A stretch of 64,000 nt of DNA, from assembly GCA_039931165.1 (NCBI GenBank), contig JBDTSL010000002.1, positions 71,134-135,133 on the forward strand, given 5' to 3'. Within the stretch, counting starts at the first letter, position 1. Each line of letters starts with the position of its first letter. Under the pieces are notes generated by a model. The model was not told where the DNA came from. It was given only the letters and a program-made list of their open reading frames with translations, and did not search any database. Source of the stretch: Candidatus Doudnabacteria bacterium. Its GTDB lineage: Bacteria; Patescibacteriota; Doudnabacteria; UBA920; O2-02-FULL-48-8. Shown here in pieces: positions 9,011 to 58,482 of the stretch. A program made the translations under genes and the position numbers.

Positions 9011-9037
9011 AGGCTTGAAAAATTAAGCCTTTTTTTG
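9011..9037 (+). terminator. rho-independent terminator
   Basis: aggcttgaaaaattaagcct hairpin followed by T7. Confidence 0.7.
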
Positions 9038-9061
9038 TATAATAACCTAGCTTTAGTTATG

Positions 9062-9179
9062 TTTACGAACAAAAGTAGGTGCACAGCGAAGCGAGCACGA
9101 TTTTTGTCCGAGAGGAGCAGTATGTCGACCGTAGCATATCCGCCATCAAGCGGATTGCGAAATGTCGACCAACTGCGAC
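9062..9179 (+). ncRNA. structured non-coding element, family 1, copy a
   Basis: About 75% identical to 37063-37194. Shares closing stem acgaacaaaa / ttttgt(c/t)cg and core gagaggagcagt...ccgtagc...gcgaa...caactgcgacga. Internal hairpin shows compensatory change (ccgc..gcgg here vs ccga..tcgg in copy b). Preceded by a tataat -10. Confidence 0.55.
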
Positions 9180-9214
9180 GAGGTCCCATCGTCTAACGGT
9201 TAGGACGCCAGGTT
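9180..9214 (+). other. partial duplicate of tRNA-Glu 5' half (35 nt, up to anticodon position 35)
   Basis: ggtcccatcgtctaacggttaggacgccaggtttt is identical to 9511-9545; diverges after the anticodon-loop T-run. Confidence 0.8.
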
Positions 9215-9268
9215 TTTCCCGCGAAGCGGGACCACGCTTCGCGTGGCATCCTCCTTAATTTACAATGT

Positions 9269-9532
9269 ATGCATTATCTGTATATTCTCAAAAGCCAATC
9301 CAAAGATTGGTACTATGTAGGAATGACGGACAATCTAAAAAAACGACTAGCACAACATAATTTAGGAAAAACTAAATCAACCAAACCTTATAGGCCATTC
9401 AAGATAGTGTATACTGAAACCTATCAAAGCAAGACTGAATGTAGGAAGCGAGAGTTGTTTATAAAAAATAACCACGCTGCTAAACAAGCTATTGTAGAAA
9501 ACATGTATATGGTCCCATCGTCTAACGGTTAG
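9269..9532 (+). CDS. GIY-YIG nuclease superfamily protein (YhbQ/UPF0213-like)
   Basis: 87 aa; 'YLYILKSQSKDWYYVGMTDNLKKRLAQHNLGK' GIY-YIG motif plus conserved Arg/Glu. Last 7 codons (MVPSSNG) are encoded by the tRNA-Glu 5' end. Confidence 0.7.
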   Translation: MHYLYILKSQSKDWYYVGMTDNLKKRLAQHNLGKTKSTKPYRPFKIVYTETYQSKTECRKRELFIKNNHAAKQAIVENMYMVPSSNG

Positions 9533-9585
9533 GACGCCAGGTTTTCATCCTGGTAATCCGGGTTCGATTCCCGGTGGGATCACCA
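9511..9585 (+). tRNA. tRNA-Glu (anticodon UUC)
   Basis: Cloverleaf: acceptor ggtccca/tgggatc; D-loop tctaacggttagg; anticodon stem ccagg/cctgg with loop ttTTCat; T-arm ccgggttcgattcccgg; encoded CCA. Confidence 0.85.
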
Positions 9586-14848: not shown

Positions 14849-15865
14849 ATGACAATCCTTGCAATAGAAACCAGCTGCGACGAAACTGCGGCTGCGGTGA
14901 TCACCGACGGAAAAATCAGATCCAGCATTATCGCTTCACAAGCGCTCAAGCTTCATGCCAAATACGGCGGTGTAGTGCCGGAAGTGGCGGCCAGAAGCCA
15001 CGTCACTGCGATCATACCTGTGATAGACCTGGCCTTGAAACAATCAAAAACAAAATTGACCGACATTGATTATATTGCGGTTACCCAAGGCCCGGGATTG
15101 GCCACGTCTTTAATGGTGGGTGTGGACACGGCCAAAGGGCTGGGAGCGGCGCTGAATATTCCCGTGATTCCGATCAACCATCTGGAGGGTCATATATATG
15201 CCAATTTTGTCGGCGCTGAGCGCTCAGCTCTGAGCGCTCAAACCTTCCCTGCACTTATTCTTACCGTTTCCGGAGGCCACACCCAGCTGGTTGAAATGAA
15301 AGGACATGGAAAGTACCGCATCCTGGGCGAAACAGTGGATGATGCCGCCGGCGAAGCTTTTGATAAGATCGCCAGAATGCTGGGACTCGGGTATCCCGGG
15401 GGCCCGCAATTGAGCCTGCTTGCCAAAAAAGGAGATCCAAAAGCATTTAATTTTCCCCGCCCCATGATCAATTCGGGTAATTTTAATTTTAGTTTTTCCG
15501 GCCTTAAGACAGCCGTTCTCTACAAGCTTAAGGAACTATCACCTACAACCTACAACCTAAAACCTAACATCGCCGCATCTACACAACAGGCGATCGTGGA
15601 CGTTCTGATCTCCAAACTGGAAAAAGCAATTATCCGATATAAGCCGAAAACCATCATGCTCGGCGGCGGAGTGGCAGCGAACGAATTACTTAGAAAAAGA
15701 TTTAAATTATTATCTATCAACTATCATCTCTCGTCTATTATTCCTGAGCTCAAGTACTGCACGGACAATGCGGCCATGATCGGCTTGGCGGCTTTTTACA
15801 GGATCGAACACAAAAATTTTCAGGCAAAAAACTTCTCCGTAAACCCAAATCTTGTGCTAAAATAA
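14849..15865 (+). CDS. tsaD: tRNA N6-adenosine threonylcarbamoyltransferase TsaD (Kae1/Gcp)
   Basis: 'ILAIETSCDETAAAVI', 'GGVVPEVAARSHV', 'GGGVAANELLR'. Probable start at the Met of MTILAIE (14849); the listed ORF begins 45 nt upstream. Confidence 0.85.
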   Translation: MTILAIETSCDETAAAVITDGKIRSSIIASQALKLHAKYGGVVPEVAARSHVTAIIPVIDLALKQSKTKLTDIDYIAVTQGPGLATSLMVGVDTAKGLGAALNIPVIPINHLEGHIYANFVGAERSALSAQTFPALILTVSGGHTQLVEMKGHGKYRILGETVDDAAGEAFDKIARMLGLGYPGGPQLSLLAKKGDPKAFNFPRPMINSGNFNFSFSGLKTAVLYKLKELSPTTYNLKPNIAASTQQAIVDVLISKLEKAIIRYKPKTIMLGGGVAANELLRKRFKLLSINYHLSSIIPELKYCTDNAAMIGLAAFYRIEHKNFQAKNFSVNPNLVLK

Positions 15866-34659: not shown

Positions 34660-34899
34660 ATGGTTAAGAAATTGAAGGAAATCCTATTGGCGGCCTGGAA
34701 TCAAATCTCGCATCCGATTCTCGTCCGTCCTCTCACAAAATTTCAACACGCGAATTGTTTTTACTGCGGAAGGGTTGCGACACACGAAGCCGTCCTCGAA
34801 CCGCACACGGTAAAATGTTGCAAACGGTTTGATTGTACTATCGCGGCCAAGAAGCAGTTGCAGGAGATGGATTTGCGCCTGAATTCACGCCTCCAGTAA
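34660..34899 (+). CDS. hypothetical small Cys-rich protein
   Basis: 79 aa with strong SD aaggaggt; 'CFYCGRV...HTVKCCKRFDC' possible zinc ribbon; no family assignment. Confidence 0.3.
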   Translation: MVKKLKEILLAAWNQISHPILVRPLTKFQHANCFYCGRVATHEAVLEPHTVKCCKRFDCTIAAKKQLQEMDLRLNSRLQ

Positions 34900-34971: not shown

Positions 34972-36972
34972 ATGAAATTCCAACTTCAATCCGAATTCAA
35001 ACCCGCGGGCGACCAGCCGCAGGCCATTGAAAAACTGGTCAAGGGCCTGGAAAAAAAATACCGTTACCAAACCTTGCTCGGCGTTACCGGTTCAGGCAAG
35101 ACTTTTACCATGGCCAATATCGTACAGCAGGTCCAGCGGCCGACATTAATAATTTCCCACAACAAAACCTTAGCCGCCCAGCTCGCCTCGGAGTTTACGG
35201 ATTTTTTTCCGGATAATGCCGTGCATTACTTCGTCTCATACTACGATTACTACCAGCCGGAGGCCTACATCCCCCGTTCTGACACATATATCGAAAAAGA
35301 AACCCAGATCAACGAAGAGATCGACAAATTGCGGAACGCAGCCACGCAAAGCCTGCTGTCGCGCAAGGATGTTTTGATCGTCGCTTCCGTGTCCTGCATT
35401 TACGGCCTTGGCAATCCCGGCAATTACTTGGAACTGTCCATTCCGCTGAAAGTCGGCCAGGAAATCAAGCGCGATAAATTCCTGCGGCGCCTGACTGATC
35501 TGCAGTTTTTACGCAATGACATAAATCTGACCCGCGGCACTTACCGCGTGCGGGGGGATGTCATTGAATTCATCCCGGCATCGGCGGACAAGATCACCAG
35601 GCTGAATTTTAACGGCGACGAGCTGGAAAAAATCTCGGAGCACGATCCGCTGACCGGCCAAGATTTCGGCAATCTAGCTGAACTGACTATTTTCCCGGCC
35701 AAACATTTCGTCACGCCCAAAGAAAAACTGTTCGCCGCCGTCGGCAACATCCGCAATGAGCTGGCTGATCAGATTAAATTTTTTAAATCGCAAGGCAAGG
35801 ACATCGAAGCCCAGCGCATCGAACAGCGGACGAACTTTGACATCGAAATGATGCTGGAAACCGGTTTCGTCGCCGGTATCGAAAACTACTCGCGGCAGTT
35901 GGATTTCCGCAAACCCGGCGAGCCGCCGAGCACCCTGCTCGATTATTTTCCGGATGATTTTCTGCTTTTCATCGACGAATCGCACATCACCCTGCCGCAG
36001 ATCTCCGGCATGTATCTCGGCGACCAGTCGCGGAAAAAAACTCTGGTCGATTACGGGTTCAGGCTGCCCTCCGCCATGGACAACCGGCCGCTGCAGTTCG
36101 AGGAATTCGAAAAAAAAATCGGCCAGACGATATTCGTCTCCGCCACTCCGGTTCAGGACCGGGAGATAAAAATTTCGAAAGTCGTGGCCGAGCAGCTGAT
36201 CCGGCCGACAGGGCTGCTTGATCCCGAAATTGAGATCCGCCCGACCAAAAACCAGATCGACGACCTGATGGAAGAGATCCAAAAAAGGGTCAAGAAAAAA
36301 CAGCGCGTGCTGGTCACGACCCTGACCAAAAATATGGCCGAGGAACTGTCGCAATATCTGGTGGAGTACGGCATCCGCGGGCAATACCTCCACGCCGACA
36401 TCGAGACTTTGGAGCGCCTGGAGATCCTGCGCGACCTGAGATTGGGAGTTTACGATGTGGTGGTCGGCATCAACCTGCTGCGTGAAGGTTTGGATTTACC
36501 GGAAGTATCCTTGGTCGCGATCTTGGATGCGGATAAAGAAGGATTTTTGCGCTCGGAAACTTCCCTGATCCAGACCATGGGCCGCGCTTCGCGCCACGTC
36601 GAAGGCCATGTCATCATGTACGCGGACAAGATCACGGGTTCGATGCAACGCGCCATGGATGAAGTTGAGCGCCGGCGCAAACTTCAGATAGCGTACAACA
36701 AAAAGCATGGCATTACTCCTCAAAGCATCATCAAAGCCATCAAAGAAACCCGGCTGGCCGGCAAGAAAGCCGAAGAAGAAAAAACCGAGGCTCTAAAGGA
36801 AATGGACCTGACCCGGATGACCAAACAGGACATTGCCTATGCCATCGAAGAACTGCGCGACCAGATGGATATGGCTTCGCGCAATCTGGATTTCGAAAAA
36901 GCCGCCGCTCTGCGCGACCAGATCACCGCCATCCGAACCAAAACCCGGATGAAAAAACATAAGTTTAAATAA
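34972..36972 (+). CDS. uvrB: excinuclease ABC subunit B
   Basis: 666 aa; '[14 protein letters not shown]' Walker A; helicase motifs; C-terminal UVR domain '[15 protein letters not shown]'. Confidence 0.95.
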
Positions 36973-37062
36973 GCCTTAACCTTGAACATTAATCAAAAAC
37001 TTGCTATTCTTTGTAAGCTAATCAGAGGTGTCGCCCTGAAATGCAATTTTTTAACTTTATTA

Positions 37063-37194
37063 TTTACGAACAAAATTAGGTGCGCAGTCCCGACCTGTCG
37101 GGGCGAGCACGAATTTTGTTCGAGAGGAGCAGTGAGGATACCGTAGCGCATTCCGACAAATCGGGATCGCGAAGGTAATCCCAACTGCGACGAC
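37063..37194 (+). ncRNA. structured non-coding element, family 1, copy b (rpsT 5' leader)
   Basis: Homolog of 9062-9179; ends exactly at the rpsT start codon; closing stem acgaacaaaat/attttgttcg; inner hairpin cccgacctgtcgggg. Confidence 0.55.
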
Positions 37195-37458
37195 ATGCCC
37201 AATACTAAATCTGCCATGAAAGCCATGCGCCAGAATGCCAAACGGCGCATTACCAATCTGAAAGCCCTGGACGCTATCCGGAAAACCGTGAAGAATGTCC
37301 GCAAGCTGGCGGAGGCCGGAAACAAATCGGATGCTCACAAAGCTCTGTCTGCCGCCTTTGCCGCGCTCGATAAGGCTGCCAAAAAGAACATCATCCATAA
37401 AAATAACGCGTCCCGCCGAAAAGCCCGCCTCGCGCAAATGGTCGGAAAACTCAAGTAA
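37195..37458 (+). CDS. rpsT: 30S ribosomal protein S20
   Basis: 87 aa; 'NTKSAMKAMRQNAKRRITNLKA' N-terminus and A/K-rich helices typical of S20. Confidence 0.85.
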   Translation: MPNTKSAMKAMRQNAKRRITNLKALDAIRKTVKNVRKLAEAGNKSDAHKALSAAFAALDKAAKKNIIHKNNASRRKARLAQMVGKLK

Positions 37459-52641: not shown

Positions 52642-54078
52642 TTATGCTTCCAAATCAGCATTCTCTAATACAATAAGTGCCTTATTCTTATCAACTAAAT
52701 TCAAATTAAATCCTGTTTCGTCATAAGATAATCCATGTACCCACCCAATTGCAGACATTGTGTGCTTAGCGTGTTTTAGATAATTACCTCTCACGTTCTT
52801 TGCTGTTACCCCTTTAGTTTTATCGAACTGTTTATTGAATTGTTTAATAAGTAATTCTTGCTCAGGCTGGGTTAATTTTCTAAACATGAGTACCAAATCA
52901 CGAATAAATAATAAATCAGTCATAGAATCAGCGTGCATTACAAATAGATAAAATTCTTCCAAACTTATATATTCTAGTTCTAACAATAACTTTATTATAA
53001 AACTTACCATATTTACTCCACCCCAAGTCATCATGGATGTGTTATTAGTATAAATATCTTTCTCACAATCCAAATTCTTACAAACAGCAAATTTAATACC
53101 CGATTCTGTTAAGGTTAATTTGGAGTTATCTTCTTTATTCTTATTCTTGAGTAAATGGGTTGCTAATCCCAACCTTATTAAATAATTTTTTTCTTGCCTA
53201 ATAAATAAGTCTCTAGGTCTTGTTTTATGTTTTTTCTTTTTAAATTTAATTTTAAGGCTGTTAAGAATAGTTATTAATTCTTTACTTTTTTTTGATATAT
53301 CAATATAACCCTTTTTACCTAACTTAGACTTAATTAAGATAACAATTTTTTTTAAGTTGGAGACTAAATTATTATCAATGTAGCCTTGGTCTGGAATAAT
53401 GTACCACCCTCTCCAGAGTGAATTTGTAAAATCACTTTTCACCTGTTTTTTCTTTTTAGAAATACCTATCCAAGATTTAATAAAATCAAACAGTACTTTT
53501 GATACTTTTTTGCTTTCGCTAGAAAATTTAACAATTTCAATTTCTTTTTTCACTTCTCGTTTTAGTCGCTCTCTATCCTGCCATTCTTTAAGAATTACAT
53601 CAGTTACTTCAAAACACTTATCATTATCCCAAAGATATTCAAAAAACATTAAAGATTGTTCAACTGTATTGTTTTTATTTGATTCGGGATCAATAAATAT
53701 ACTCGCTTCTACATTCTGCAAAAAAGCCGCTCTACTAAAGTTTGCAGATCCAACCAAACAGACCCAGGCTCCATTTTTTTCGGAAAGCCACATTTTAGGA
53801 TGAAAGGTGCCTGCTTCAAATTTGCATATTTTAACTTCAACTCCAACCCCTATCAACCTTCTAATTGCTGTTGGTTGAGTTATATCCATATCATTGCTAC
53901 ATATAATTCTAATGTCTCCCTTATTGATAATGATGGATTTCAAATCATCAATTAACATATCAACACCACTATTTCTAATATATGCTACAGCCAAAAATAA
54001 CTTATCGCTATCTTTTAATAGTTCCTTTATCTTTTTTAGATGATTGGGTAGAGAAATGATCTGATTTTGAATAAACAT
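52642..54078 (-). CDS. PLD-family (HKD) nuclease domain protein with long uncharacterised C-terminal region
   Basis: 478 aa; N-terminal domain 'LFLAVAYI...HPKMWLSEKNGAWVCLVGSANFSRAAF' = single HxK...GSxN PLD motif (BfiI/NgoFVII/Nuc-like). C-terminal ~300 aa Lys-rich, no match. Confidence 0.6.
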   Translation of the reverse strand: MFIQNQIISLPNHLKKIKELLKDSDKLFLAVAYIRNSGVDMLIDDLKSIIINKGDIRIICSNDMDITQPTAIRRLIGVGVEVKICKFEAGTFHPKMWLSEKNGAWVCLVGSANFSRAAFLQNVEASIFIDPESNKNNTVEQSLMFFEYLWDNDKCFEVTDVILKEWQDRERLKREVKKEIEIVKFSSESKKVSKVLFDFIKSWIGISKKKKQVKSDFTNSLWRGWYIIPDQGYIDNNLVSNLKKIVILIKSKLGKKGYIDISKKSKELITILNSLKIKFKKKKHKTRPRDLFIRQEKNYLIRLGLATHLLKNKNKEDNSKLTLTESGIKFAVCKNLDCEKDIYTNNTSMMTWGGVNMVSFIIKLLLELEYISLEEFYLFVMHADSMTDLLFIRDLVLMFRKLTQPEQELLIKQFNKQFDKTKGVTAKNVRGNYLKHAKHTMSAIGWVHGLSYDETGFNLNLVDKNKALIVLENADLEA

Positions 54079-54087
54079 AAGGACTAT

Positions 54088-55332
54088 TCAATATTTAACC
54101 AAGTATTCATAAATATCTTTTAATAATTCTCGATTGTAGTTTTTCATTCCACCAGCGAGATCACCTTTATACTTAACATTTTTTCCGTTTTCGGCATGAA
54201 TAAAATTATGATCGAAATCTTCAAGATCTATTTCGTTTTCTGTTATATTAAGAATCATATTCCGGTTTCCATTTTTCCCTATTTCGGCATGCTTATTCTT
54301 TTCTAGGTATAATAAATTTTTCCAATGATCAATCATTTTTAGTTCTTCTTTGTTACGAGCTGCATTAAAAGGAACAATATGATGCAATTCAAAACTAATG
54401 GATCGCTTTATGCTGTGTTTCACAAAATATTCTTGTTTAGCTCCTAGGCTTCTGAGCTGAACTCTGACATCAGAAAATAAACCATAACGGCCCGTATTTA
54501 AAGTTAAACTATTACGAGTAATTTCAAAATATACAGTATTTTTTAAAAGGCTAAATATTTGTTGGGACTCGTTCTTCCAATTATGGAAATCGCGGTCGTC
54601 CGTTTTGGATCCAGAAAAATTAACTGGATTGCAATATAGCTTTATTAAATCTATGGCTTTATTTTGCTGCCAACGCTTTAAACTACGATAAGAATCAATG
54701 AGTACAATCTTAAACTCTTTGGGAACCCCTTTTCTGTCATCAGATAAAATAAACATAAACTCATAAATACCTATCGGATCGTTTTTATAATTACTATAAT
54801 ATAAAGTTTCCGCTAACTGAGTTATTTGATCTTGAAATAAAACATCTAGCGCATCGGTGAAAACCTTATATTTGATCGAAATAGATCTGGTTGTGGCGAA
54901 TTCAGTAGCTTTTTTAGTTAACCCGCAATAGAAAATTTGACCTCGTGTCCCAATATCTAAGAGGTTTTCATTTTTATCATATCTATCCAAAAAACCCATT
55001 CTTTGAAAATCAACAAAAAAATTTTTCTTAATAGAATTAACTGTCCCAATTCCTATACTACTTTTAACTTTTTTAACTATTTCATAATACTGTACACAAT
55101 CCCTCTCCCTCGTACCATCATCATCACCTAAGGGTATCCTGAATTTACTATTCCCTACTACACTATGAATTGCCTCAACTATTCCAGATAACCTATCCAA
55201 ATCATATCTATTGTGTTGGGATATATGTAACCCGCGATAATCCTTATCTTTTATTCTTTCAACTATATAATGCAAAAATAAGTTATCTTTGTCTATCGAT
55301 AATATTTCTTTCAGAATATTATTTACGTTCAT
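54088..55332 (-). CDS. HNH-like nuclease domain protein, putative restriction endonuclease
   Basis: 414 aa; C-terminal 'SFELHHIVPFNAARNKEELKMIDHWKNLLYLEKNKH' HNH-type His-Asn-His pattern; start overlaps the upstream MTase stop. Confidence 0.45.
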   Translation of the reverse strand: MNVNNILKEILSIDKDNLFLHYIVERIKDKDYRGLHISQHNRYDLDRLSGIVEAIHSVVGNSKFRIPLGDDDGTRERDCVQYYEIVKKVKSSIGIGTVNSIKKNFFVDFQRMGFLDRYDKNENLLDIGTRGQIFYCGLTKKATEFATTRSISIKYKVFTDALDVLFQDQITQLAETLYYSNYKNDPIGIYEFMFILSDDRKGVPKEFKIVLIDSYRSLKRWQQNKAIDLIKLYCNPVNFSGSKTDDRDFHNWKNESQQIFSLLKNTVYFEITRNSLTLNTGRYGLFSDVRVQLRSLGAKQEYFVKHSIKRSISFELHHIVPFNAARNKEELKMIDHWKNLLYLEKNKHAEIGKNGNRNMILNITENEIDLEDFDHNFIHAENGKNVKYKGDLAGGMKNYNRELLKDIYEYLVKY

Positions 55333-56110
55333 TTTTATTCAAACTCTTGAGACGATTACTGGCTATTTTAACATACTCCTTATCTGAATCATTACCAACA
55401 AAATTACGTCCTAGTTTCGTGGCGGCCACAGCAGTTGTACCGCTACCTATAAAACAATCCAATACTAAATCACCTTTATTAGAACTCGCCAAAACCATCC
55501 TCTCAATCATATCTAAAGGCTTCGGGGTCAAATGAGGCAGCTTCTGTACCTTACCATTAACCTTGTGCTTGTGTCTTTCACTGGTTATATGCCAAACTTC
55601 GCCTACTACCTTGCCTTTTTCATTAGGAAACCATCTTTTCCCGTTTTTTAGGATTCCTCTAACCTTCGCATGTTCAATTCTCTCTGTTGAATCATAGGGT
55701 ACTCTTACATCATTATAATTAAAAGTGTGGTTATGCTCTTTGGTGAAAAAAAGAATAGTTTCTTGACCATTACTGTACCTTTGCTTTGCGCTACCTAAAC
55801 CGTCGCGTTTATCCCATGTTATCCAATTTTGGAATACTAATCTTCTTTTTATTAAATACTCTAAAATAAATGCTGAATTGTATGGTGTATTAAATATATA
55901 AATGCTGGAATCTTTCTTAAGTTTTGGAATGAGTGCGTCTATCCATTTAAATGTAAACTCTAAAAACTTTTTATGGTTTCTAAAAGTATCCCAATCCGCC
56001 TTATGCATATTATAAGGGGGATCTAATATAGCCAAATTAACAGTATTATTATCAATTTGTTTTAAAAAATCAAAGCAATCTAAATTGTAAATTTTGTTAA
56101 TTTTAAGCAT
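55319..56110 (-). CDS. DNA methyltransferase, beta-class amino-MTase (N6-adenine or N4-cytosine)
   Basis: 263 aa; motif IV 'DPPYNM' near N-terminus, motif I 'DLVLDCFIGSGTTAVAA' near C-terminus (beta-class order). Confidence 0.85.
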   Translation of the reverse strand: MLKINKIYNLDCFDFLKQIDNNTVNLAILDPPYNMHKADWDTFRNHKKFLEFTFKWIDALIPKLKKDSSIYIFNTPYNSAFILEYLIKRRLVFQNWITWDKRDGLGSAKQRYSNGQETILFFTKEHNHTFNYNDVRVPYDSTERIEHAKVRGILKNGKRWFPNEKGKVVGEVWHITSERHKHKVNGKVQKLPHLTPKPLDMIERMVLASSNKGDLVLDCFIGSGTTAVAATKLGRNFVGNDSDKEYVKIASNRLKSLNKNERK

Positions 56111-56726
56111 TTATTATAAATTCTTTTAAAATTTCACTCATTGGTTCTAAGTCTGGAACTGCTTTTGTGTAAGCAGGATTAGGCATCCAGCTTGCAAGTG
56201 GAGGTAGCCCAATTGAGTACCCAGCAAGGCATACACTTTTGTCGTCATCTAATAAAAATGCTTGTACATAAAAATCTGCCTTTGAATTTTGTTTTTGATC
56301 AATTAATAAATTAAGGGGCATTCCGTTTAATTTTAGTCCTTTAAATATTTGGTCTAAAGATACTTTATTATTTTCGTAAGTTTTTATATCAATGGTCTTA
56401 TTTTTGATTTTAAACTCAAATCCCTCATCAAATTTCCCAATGACAATCCCATAAGAAAACTCTACTCTTTTATGAAGTATTTGCCATCTGTCTAGGGGTT
56501 CAATCGCTCCAAAATTATTATTGAGGTAACTAAAAATATATTCTAAAAATGCAAGTTCGCCTAAAATTCCCGTCTTAATTTTATTGATATGTGATATTTT
56601 TTCGTAACTACCATAGCCCCGGCGTGGATATTCAAATAAACTCCTTTTCTCGGCCACATACTCGGCCACATGGTTCATCTCGTCTGTTATAGCTATAACT
56701 ATTAGATTACTCTTATTTACAGACAT
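56103..56726 (-). CDS. hypothetical protein sandwiched between the two MTase genes (possible restriction/nicking subunit)
   Basis: 207 aa; overlaps both neighbours (translational coupling); 'GILGELAFLEY' plus Asp/Glu/Lys-rich segments; no confident motif. Confidence 0.4.
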   Translation of the reverse strand: MSVNKSNLIVIAITDEMNHVAEYVAEKRSLFEYPRRGYGSYEKISHINKIKTGILGELAFLEYIFSYLNNNFGAIEPLDRWQILHKRVEFSYGIVIGKFDEGFEFKIKNKTIDIKTYENNKVSLDQIFKGLKLNGMPLNLLIDQKQNSKADFYVQAFLLDDDKSVCLAGYSIGLPPLASWMPNPAYTKAVPDLEPMSEILKEFIINA

Positions 56727-57556
56727 AATTTTAATTTGATAACTTTTTCATAACTCTTGGAGATTTCATAACCAACATATTTCCTATCTAACTCCTTGGC
56801 CACTTTTAATGTAGTCCCGGAACCGACAAATGGGTCTAGAATGAGTTCTCCAACGAAACTATAAAGTCTAACACATCTTTTAACTATTTCCTCTGGCATA
56901 ATTGCTGAATGCTCACCAAAGGCAATGTCCCCTCTGCCTGGGATTGGAATATTCCAGATTTGCTTTGTATATTCTATCCACTCCTTCTGAGTCAATTTGC
57001 TTCGTTCTTTTATTTTATGAGTAAAATTATTTTCAGGGATACCATCCTTGACATAAATTGTAATAAACTCTGTCGTATTCTGGGCATAAAAATTTCTAGG
57101 AAATGGGTAGCTCCCAAACATAAGTCTTTTACTAGGATTTGTTCTATTCCAAATAAATAAATCCATTAAATATAAATTGGTATTTCTTAAAATAGAATGC
57201 TGAATATCGCTATTGATATCAAAAATATGCCTATTATAATGTGTAGTCATGTTCTTTTTCAAAATTGGCATTAAGGGGCTATTTATAGCGATTTTTCCAT
57301 TCGGTTTCAGCACACGATGGCATTCTTCCCAAACTTTTAGCATCTCTTCAATGTATTTATTATATTCCGGAATGTCTCCTATTTGGCCATTTACTTTTTC
57401 CGATGTTTTATTCTTTTGATAACCATCGAGTGAATAATCCTTAATGTTAAAATAGGGCGGGCTGGTGACGATGAGCTGAACAGAATTATCTGGAAGCTCT
57501 TTCATCATTCGCGCGTCCTTAAAGAATACCTTATTTATGTAATCAATTTGTTTCAT
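56717..57556 (-). CDS. DNA methyltransferase, beta-class amino-MTase (second)
   Basis: 279 aa; motif IV 'SPPYFN', motif I 'ILDPFVGSGTT'; ParB-less, MTase only. Confidence 0.85.
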   Translation of the reverse strand: MKQIDYINKVFFKDARMMKELPDNSVQLIVTSPPYFNIKDYSLDGYQKNKTSEKVNGQIGDIPEYNKYIEEMLKVWEECHRVLKPNGKIAINSPLMPILKKNMTTHYNRHIFDINSDIQHSILRNTNLYLMDLFIWNRTNPSKRLMFGSYPFPRNFYAQNTTEFITIYVKDGIPENNFTHKIKERSKLTQKEWIEYTKQIWNIPIPGRGDIAFGEHSAIMPEEIVKRCVRLYSFVGELILDPFVGSGTTLKVAKELDRKYVGYEISKSYEKVIKLKLCL

Positions 57557-57667
57557 CGATACCTACTGACGCTACTATAATGCCATAAAAACTCTAGATT
57601 GACAATAAAAATAGCGGCGTTTTTTCTGCAAAAAGTCAAATTCATTCCCTCAAGATTAAAGCTTAGA

Positions 57668-58234
57668 TCAACCAGTAAAACCAATCGTCCGTGGGTTACT
57701 GGAATATTCCAAATCCTTCAGCAAACTGACGTACTCTTTCAGCATTTCCGCCGGGATGTTTTCCTGCGCCGTATCCAGAATCAGATTATAGTAGGCCATC
57801 ATGTGCTGTCTCGAGGCATTAAACTTATCCCAAAATTTGTCCCCGTAAATTTTCAGGTTGTCTTTCAAGTCCCGCATATTGGATATAGCATCCGCGGATT
57901 TGAGAAACATGGCCATTTTTGACCGCCCCATCCGGACAAGTACATCATCTTTCCGCTTGATCCAATCCTTGATCGCTTTATTTTCGGTGACCATATCCAC
58001 CAGCTCGGCCACACCCGGCCCGAACTCCTGCCGCATTTCTTCCGATGTGTATTTGGTATCCTCGATGGTATCGTGCAGGATCGCTGCGGCGATAACCTCT
58101 TCGTTTGGAGTAAACCTGGCCATCAGCATGGCGACTTCCAAAGGATGGACGATGAACGGTGTTTCCTCATCCTTGCGCAGCTGGCCCTGATGCAGGGTCA
58201 TGGCTTTAATTGTAGCTTTTCTGACTAATCCCAT
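57668..58234 (-). CDS. HD-domain (p)ppGpp hydrolase-like protein (small alarmone hydrolase, RelA/SpoT HD family)
   Basis: 188 aa; 'FIVHPLEVAMLM...AAILHDTIEDT' is the RelA/SpoT hydrolase HD signature. Confidence 0.75.
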   Translation of the reverse strand: MGLVRKATIKAMTLHQGQLRKDEETPFIVHPLEVAMLMARFTPNEEVIAAAILHDTIEDTKYTSEEMRQEFGPGVAELVDMVTENKAIKDWIKRKDDVLVRMGRSKMAMFLKSADAISNMRDLKDNLKIYGDKFWDKFNASRQHMMAYYNLILDTAQENIPAEMLKEYVSLLKDLEYSSNPRTIGFTG

Positions 58235-58482
58235 ATTTTTCCTTTCGTTTAAAAATTAAAAAACTCTTCCCACGAGGAAAGAGAAATAAAAAATCGACCA
58301 TTTATCTTTCCCCGAAGGGCTGAAGTTGGCACCTTCTTTAGGTTATCAATCTAAAGGGTTGCCGGTAGGGTCATAAGGTCAGTTCCTTCGCCTACTCTCT
58401 TGATAGTTAACTATTCAATTGTAAATTAATTATACTCCTATTTCGTAAAATAGTCAAATTTTACCACAATTTCTAATACAAA
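58235..58482 (-). promoter_or_regulatory. long structured 5' leader with intrinsic terminator (riboswitch/attenuator-like) upstream of the HD-hydrolase gene
   Basis: Minus-sense: ...aggagtataat... then multiple helices (cccuucgggg UUCG tetraloop; cuuuag/cuaaag; gaagg/ccuuc pairs), then cucuuuccucgugggaagag+UUUUUU about 45 nt before the ATG. Confidence 0.45.

Follow-up and report, generated by a model that had tools for sequence, protein, structure and literature searches.

Two copies of a structured element abut a tRNA-Glu fragment and rpsT

The window, a 64,000 nt stretch of a Candidatus Doudnabacteria genome, harbors two copies of a structured element on the forward strand. Relatives of its S20 likewise assign the window to Candidatus Doudnabacteria, within the Patescibacteria/CPR. 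Copy A directly abuts a 35 nt 5′ fragment of tRNA-Glu, with the intact tRNA-Glu located at 9511-9585, and copy B adjoins rpsT, the gene for ribosomal protein S20. The features of the two loci are as follows.

9011-9030: terminator-like hairpin of the upstream gene, overlapped by the promoter-like site
9015..9043, + strand: promoter-like site TTGAAA-17-TATAAT (sequence match, 11/12), which could drive copy A
9062..9066, + strand: 5′ flank of copy A, TTTAC, the last C of which is the first paired base of P1
9066-9181, + strand: copy A, 116 nt, refined boundaries
9066..9110, + strand: stem-loop 1 of copy A, with P1 (9066-9075 with 9101-9110), P2 GUGC/GCAC, the CAG...CGAG loop and a short tip hairpin, GC-GAA-GC
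9111..9116, + strand: invariant purine junction of copy A, (A)GAGGA, predicted to zip onto the 3′ tail
9117..9176, + strand: stem-loop 2 of copy A, with P3 GCAGU/ACUGC, P4 GUCGAC/GUCGAC, the (C)GUA/GAA loop and P5-P6
9177..9181, + strand: 3′ tail of copy A, GACGA, immediately before position 1 (9182) of the tRNA-Glu fragment
9182..9216, + strand: 35 nt 5′ duplicate of tRNA-Glu(UUC), identical to 9511-9545
37063..37067, + strand: 5′ flank of copy B, TTTAC
37067-37193, + strand: copy B, 127 nt, refined boundaries
37067..37122, + strand: stem-loop 1 of copy B, with P1 of 11 bp, P2 GUGC/GCAC and a long 7-bp tip stem
37123..37128, + strand: invariant junction of copy B, AGAGGA
37129..37188, + strand: stem-loop 2 of copy B, with P3 GCAGU/ACUGC, P4 GGAUACC/GGU(A)AUCC, the GUA/GAA loop and P5-P6
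37189..37193, + strand: 3′ tail of copy B, GACGA, followed by C 37194 and the rpsT ATG
37195..37458, + strand: rpsT (ribosomal protein S20), adjoining copy B

The original prediction held that the two copies align from end to end and that copy B stops at the S20 start codon. Both statements were borne out: the column identity is 76–83%, and the refined end of copy B is the GACGA at 37193, from which a single C leads to the rpsT ATG at 37195. The sole large difference between the copies is the hairpin tip, which is 11 nt longer in copy B. The flanks of copies A and B do not align, so that the similarity is confined to the element. This speaks against a segmental duplication extending beyond it, as does the identity of 66% between A and B in the structure-based alignment.

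A GIY-YIG gene (9269-9532, PF01541) lies between the tRNA-Glu duplicate and the intact tRNA-Glu, and GC-rich palindromes (9217-9245) adjoin the duplicate. The segment 9182-9216 is the old 5′ end of tRNA-Glu, displaced by the GIY-YIG cassette that restores an intact tRNA-Glu. The related locus L125 (5936-6328) has the same layout as the window at 9182-9585, but its tRNA fragment is 17 nt long. The GIY-YIG unit looks like a homing-type cassette that landed inside tRNA-Glu and brought a replacement 5′ part with it. The structured element is absent from the syntenic tRNA-Glu loci of L125 and L126. In L126 (7151-7190, − strand), the element-less tRNA-Glu leader ends in ..AGCAGTTGCAACGAGA, followed directly by GG; this end faintly resembles the junction (AGCAGU) plus the tail (GCGACGA) and could be a deletion remnant or a chance match.

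The fold is maintained by compensatory changes

The element consists of two stem-loops with an invariant GAGAGGAG junction between them and an invariant CGACGA tail at the end. The consensus fold of copies A and B comprises 33 pairs, 7 of which are compensatory in these two copies alone. The closing helix proposed from the sequence (CGAACAAAA.. / ..UUUUGUUCG) is predicted in both copies, and the compensatory hairpin CCGC/GCGG versus CCGA/UCGG was confirmed along with six further double changes between A and B. Stem-loops 1 (P2/P2a) and 2 (P5/P6) share no sequence.

Covariation was then assessed on additional copies, five members in all, where 18 of the 33 pairs show double compensatory changes. 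In the model-based alignment of the five members, 98.1% of the cells over the 33 pairs are paired. None of 500 shuffles reached the real value, and sliding the partners by 1–3 columns left only 29–43% paired. Selection acting on the RNA fold rather than on a reading frame, as the original prediction had it, is thus supported by the strong covariation of the five members and by the stop in the frame of copy B. There is no conserved ORF in the element; a peptide-coding role was rejected since the frame that is open in copy A meets a stop after four codons in copy B.

The predicted folding energies of copies A and B are −44.8 kcal/mol (z −5.9) and −63.8 kcal/mol (z −7.8), respectively, against dinucleotide shuffles, and 0 of 200 shuffles were as stable as the copies. 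The fold was kept when each copy was folded with its natural flanks, and the first ~15–20 nt of rpsT were unpaired in these context folds. Two Logan contigs with identical S20 (L081/L083) differ from copy B by one base at 37152, which turns a U·G pair of P6 into C-G and keeps the structure.

Several unpaired or internal positions are invariant among the five members: the CAG...CGAG loop in stem-loop 1, the junction GA-GAGGAGCAG, the ACCGUAGC opposite GCG(A)A that forms a GUA/GAA internal loop, and the tail CUG-CGACGA. The GUA/GAA internal loop resembles a loop-E or S-turn motif. The junction GAGGAG and the tail CGACGA may pair with each other through G-C pairs alternating with tandem G·A pairs; because the junction and tail bases never vary, this modeled pairing lies outside the reach of covariation. 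If it forms, the downstream gene would have its first base at the foot of the fold. Strand counts (two G·U and two A·C) are balanced, and the reverse strand folds about equally well; we read the element as a sense RNA because of its constant orientation and its position in transcribed leaders.

A small family in a subset of Doudnabacteria

When the 64-kb window was searched by covariance model with filters off, exactly two copies were found (E = 1.8e-40 and 2.9e-36), and the next matches (E >= 0.011) were reverse-strand self-matches or noise. A third-copy candidate at 14871 (CCAGCTGCGACGA) was discarded as a chance match inside the tsaD coding sequence. A three-block pattern scan of JGI metagenomes yielded 29 loci, 3 of which were kept by the covariance model and 26 of which were chance matches. 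The confirmed loci are L092, L105 and L109, the latter two carrying the same element, and one more member (L116) was found through S20 homologue look-ups. The family therefore counts five distinct members (copies A and B, L092, L105 and L116, three of them from metagenomes), which range from 115 to 127 nt.

The pairwise identity among the five members is 48–69% in the structure-based alignment: A and B, from one genome, are 66% identical, A and L105 69%, and L092 and L116 67%. This low identity indicates that the copies are old and did not arise by recent duplication.

No match was obtained in an exact-pattern scan of GTDB genomes, in viral contigs searched with three patterns, or by BLAST against phage and plasmid collections. 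Covariance models R2 and R3, applied to the full set of 126 loci, detected no distant members, for instance at the rpsT loci of Peribacteria, Gracilibacteria and Saccharibacteria. In Rfam 15, no family lies on the element at gathering score (whole window) or at E <= 10 (both loci), and no relevant description of a CPR tRNA/rpsT leader motif was found in the literature. Resemblances to 5S rRNA, SRP RNA or RNase P spotted by eye (CCGUAGCGC, CGAGAG) are not backed by any covariance model. A tRNA-like element was likewise dismissed: ARAGORN detects only the real tRNAs and no cloverleaf in the element. The element is best described as a previously uncatalogued structured RNA family, a portable two-hairpin leader cassette present in a subset of Doudnabacteria.

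The window does contain a SAM riboswitch (58299-58409, − strand, 56.8 bits), located upstream of a gene for an HD_4 (RelA/SpoT-type HD) protein. In the same segment (52642-58234, − strand), the genes after HD_4 encode two N6/N4 DNA methyltransferases and a PLD/NgoFVII-like restriction endonuclease. This gene set, unexpected downstream of a SAM riboswitch, lies in a low-GC island (0.36–0.40) at ~48–60 kb. Elsewhere, a 79-aa Cys-rich ORF with no Pfam match (34660-34899, + strand) is located between ruvA and uvrB, and the syntenic spot in two relatives (L117 and L122) holds a different gene or none.

The element is positioned at gene starts

All five copies are in sense orientation relative to the downstream gene. 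The distance from the tail to tRNA +1 is 0 nt in copy A (tRNA-Glu) and 3 nt in L105 (tRNA-Val(GAC)), and that from the tail to the rpsT ATG is 1 nt in copy B, 1 nt in L092 and 0 nt in L116. On the 5′ side, TTTAC flanks copies A, B and L105, and all five members conform to W3-AC. The flanks (TTTAC three times, TAAAC and AATAC) and the 3′ GACGA (5/5) come from few copies, and the flank is A/T-rich leader anyway. Neither a terminal inverted repeat (2–7 of 20 positions matching) nor a target-site duplication (length 0–1) was found in the five members, which speaks against a classical MITE.

The element had also been proposed to be a portable promoter/leader module. The leader part of this proposal fits best, as the same unit precedes tRNA-Glu, tRNA-Val and rpsT and is gained or lost as an exact unit. 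The promoter part is not supported: covariation includes the outer pairs of P1, and the final 12 nt do not resemble a −10 box. With covariation extending to the outermost pairs of the closing helix, transcription must begin upstream of the element, probably at host promoters. A near-consensus promoter-like site lies 23 nt upstream of copy A, and a TATAGT box immediately precedes the element in L105. The 5′UTR is longer at the rpsT-linked copies, which occupy its 3′ end.

In the window, ~50 genes were inspected and are not preceded by Shine-Dalgarno motifs. Many window genes carry a (TG)nTATAAT box 5–10 nt before the ATG, for example those at 34972, 34577 (− strand), 11924 (− strand), 44596, 46224 and 40958 (− strand), which implies widespread leaderless mRNAs or mRNAs with very short leaders. 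A function of GAGGAG as a Shine-Dalgarno sequence is not favored, given that the genome lacks Shine-Dalgarno usage and that the motif is equally invariant before tRNAs.

The element comes and goes as an exact unit at rpsT

Using covariance models R1-R3, we found the element upstream of rpsT in only three lineages (the window, L092 and L116); it is absent at this position from at least 14 related loci (L001-L003, L113-L115 and L117-L124). Two close comparisons define what is missing. Between the window and L003, the alignment extends to TATTATTTAC and resumes at CATGCCC, with CAATTA between them in L003; between L116 and its sister L119, it extends to TTAATA and resumes at the ATG, with ACCCCC between them in L119. 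In both cases the missing stretch is exactly the element, and TTTAC is retained at the empty L003 site. Six bases occupy the place of the element at the empty sites, namely CAATTA (L003 9993-9998), ACCCCC (L119) and TCCCCC (L121). The C-rich run following a −10-like hexamer there resembles a discriminator, as in a proximal promoter from which rpsT would be transcribed without a leader.

The distribution is patchy in the phylogeny. In a PolA tree, the window falls in a group with L003, L117 and L120 (~75% identity), all of which lack the element, while L116 groups with L119 (87%) and L002, both of which lack it as well. Hence these two lineages with the rpsT-linked element belong to different clades of the tree. 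By parsimony on this single-protein tree, the pattern would take about two gains at one site or six or more precise losses.

A different part of the rpsT leader is universally conserved. The block GCUAAUCA..GUGUCGC..UGAAA.GC is located downstream of a TGnTAT(T/C)CT −10 box, and the GCUAAUCA block is kept in all Doudnabacteria relatives with or without the element. Its positions are as follows.

37017-37045 in the window: conserved rpsT 5′UTR block
9945-9975 in L003: the same block
9823-9850 in L116: the same block
L119, L121, L092, L113, L115 and L117: further loci with the block

This block is a better candidate than the element for an S20-specific regulatory site.

A protein-less mobile cassette as the tentatively favored reading

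We tentatively favor, at somewhat less than even probability, the reading that the element is a protein-less mobile cassette residing in the leaders of conserved, highly transcribed genes, with its fold serving as a scaffold for protein recognition. The element would be transcribed within the leader of the host gene, where it would form two stem-loops. A trans-acting protein would recognize a surface made up of the invariant unpaired bases, namely the GAGAGGAG junction, the CGACGA tail and the GUA/GAA and CAG/CGAG loops. Always in sense, the non-autonomous unit would insert where an A/T-rich leader with a terminal ..AC meets a conserved gene start, and abutting this conserved start may be its means of finding or keeping the site. 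The adjacent conserved sequence could then act as the recognition or guide part, as in PATEs, protein-less derivatives of IS200/IS605 with TnpB omega-RNA scaffolds. Mobility, a protein partner and a guide-like role are what we infer from these features. The host would tolerate the element since RNase P removes tRNA leaders and translation is initiated without Shine-Dalgarno sequences. Its absence from at least 14 rpsT loci and two tRNA-Glu loci, including those of sister lineages, favors a portable unit over an S20 leader.

Several observations weigh against a mobile cassette. No transposase, TnpB-like or other nuclease gene adjoins any of the five copies, and eight window ORFs of 344–414 aa scanned as TnpB-size candidates gave none. 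The divergence within one genome (A-B 66%) equals that between genomes. The compensatory change in the possibly orthologous L092 and L116 points to selection acting at the site, consistent with a host function, and regulation would also fit the fact that all target genes belong to the translation machinery. The + strand GC skew is negative in the window; if the skew marks the direction of replication, the copies would lie on the strand opposite to the insertion bias of IS608.

A close rival, possible though rated below the mobile cassette, is a cis-acting leader that serves the host by defining or gating the 5′ end of the downstream RNA. Either a nuclease or the RNA itself would cut the 3′ boundary, or a bound factor would block access to it. 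In this way the leader would produce, or regulate, both the mature 5′ ends of tRNAs and a leaderless rpsT mRNA, and so coordinate genes of the translation machinery. The placement of all five sense copies 0–3 nt from a functional 5′ end of a translation-apparatus gene agrees with this, as does a genome that seemingly relies on leaderless mRNAs or very short leaders and does without Shine-Dalgarno sequences. A structure of −45 to −64 kcal/mol at the ATG should block ordinary initiation unless removed, the first ~15–20 nt of rpsT stay unpaired in the context folds, the invariant purine-rich junctions resemble catalytic or protein-binding cores, and the structure of these old copies is maintained by compensation. 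However, most orthologous rpsT and tRNA-Glu loci, including those of sister lineages, do without the element and differ by clean unit-sized indels. tRNA 5′ ends are already matured by RNase P, the L105 tail is inexact in lying 3 nt off tRNA +1, and copy A is intact although the tRNA fragment next to it is dead. A mobile cassette and a host-serving leader do not exclude each other.

A riboswitch or protein-binding regulatory aptamer for a growth-related signal is unlikely. The conserved covarying fold with invariant loops (98% paired, double changes in 18/33 pairs) in the 5′ leaders of translation genes would suit it, but there is no terminator after the element and no alternative structure sequestering the start codon, the ATG region being unpaired in the context folds; moreover, two members precede tRNAs, and the distribution is patchy among close relatives. 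There is a similarly small chance that the element is a self-processing leader, representing a new ribozyme class or a dedicated nuclease signal, that is cut at its own 3′ boundary and is movable between gene starts; in a bacterium lacking Shine-Dalgarno sequences, it would make the exact 5′ ends of mature tRNAs and of a leaderless S20 mRNA. The special case of this processing model in which a new class of self-cleaving ribozyme cuts its own 3′ boundary is a little less probable again. Compact covarying helices around invariant junction and loop bases, a patchy distribution over multiple contexts typical of small ribozymes, and a 3′ end flush with the downstream gene all point that way, against which the element has no match to hammerhead, twister, twister-sister, pistol, hatchet, HDV, hairpin or glmS ribozymes. 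Small ribozymes are not known to cleave at their very 3′ terminus. Cleavage by transesterification leaves a 5′-OH, a product that suits neither a tRNA nor a leaderless mRNA well.

It is improbable that the element is a gene for a trans-acting small RNA whose 3′ end is generated by RNase P cleavage of the adjacent tRNA: the tRNA-linked copies are located just downstream of good promoters and the fold is discrete and stable, yet the rpsT-linked copies sit inside a longer 5′UTR and have no tRNA to set the 3′ end. Least probable is the S20 autoregulatory leader of the original prediction, in which S20 would bind a mimic of its rRNA site and repress rpsT translation; three members do end 0–1 nt before the rpsT ATG, but at least 14 related rpsT loci lack the element, one of the five members precedes tRNA-Glu and another tRNA-Val, and it is the GCUAAUCA..GUGUCGC block, not the element, that is the universally conserved part of the rpsT 5′UTR.

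Genomes of the Candidate Phyla Radiation bacteria are tiny, and descriptions of their non-coding RNAs are few. The family reported here combines very clear structural covariation with an exact position at 5′ ends and a unit-wise coming and going between close relatives. Were the element a protein-less mobile scaffold RNA, selfish elements of the guide-RNA type would extend into Doudnabacteria, and a partner enzyme would be implied. Should it instead be a leader for processing or regulation, it would reveal how the 5′ ends of translation-machinery RNAs are produced or controlled in an organism that lacks Shine-Dalgarno sequences. On either reading, it is a compact, testable RNA with a ready covariance model.

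Comparison with known systems

HDV-like and hatchet ribozymes are likewise compact and patchily distributed, with an invariant core held in covarying helices, but they cut at the 5′ end, and no covariance model matches the element. Phage T7 RNase III sites and the t-elements of plant mitochondria also place a structured module against the end of a functional RNA. In contrast to these, the element has no tRNA-like fold (ARAGORN). Autoregulatory leaders of ribosomal proteins are structured 5′UTR RNAs that, like copy B, end at the start codon of a ribosomal protein gene, whereas the element is not conserved at orthologous rpsT loci, also precedes tRNAs and shows cassette-like gain and loss.

ERIC and Correia/NEMIS sequences share with the element a length of ~100–150 nt, a transcribed intergenic location, folding as RNA and variability between related genomes. 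They are single long imperfect palindromes with terminal inverted repeats, to which Correia adds a TA duplication. The element instead consists of two unrelated hairpins without terminal inverted repeats or target-site duplication, has one orientation and is fixed at gene starts.

The differences from PATEs are several. TnpA and TnpB were not seen adjoining the element copies or among the eight window ORFs scanned. The left-end and right-end hairpins of IS605 are alike, whereas the two stem-loops of the element are not, and the element has no match to the Rfam IS605-orfB or omega-RNA models even at E <= 10. Omega-RNA comprises four stems and a pseudoknot, as compared with two nested stem-loops here. 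The copies of the element are also old, diverged and always set against a gene start.

In other respects PATEs are the closest parallel in design. They likewise have no terminal inverted repeats or target-site duplication and are present or absent as exact units. The GACGA that ends all five members may correspond to their 3′-terminal motif, and the T-rich 5′ flank motif of the element contains TTAC. TTAC is the target of IS608. The scaffold of the ISDra2 omega-RNA measures 116 nt, and the bases immediately preceding its guide are paired to a segment upstream, some of them as G:A pairs (PMC10097598); the element has a scaffold of similar size, and its last bases before the flank may pair upstream in the same manner. 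Protein-less PATEs "often encode omega-RNAs" that are used in trans, and they rely on read-through transcription from the host (PMC10055086), a dependence that the element would have in common with them.
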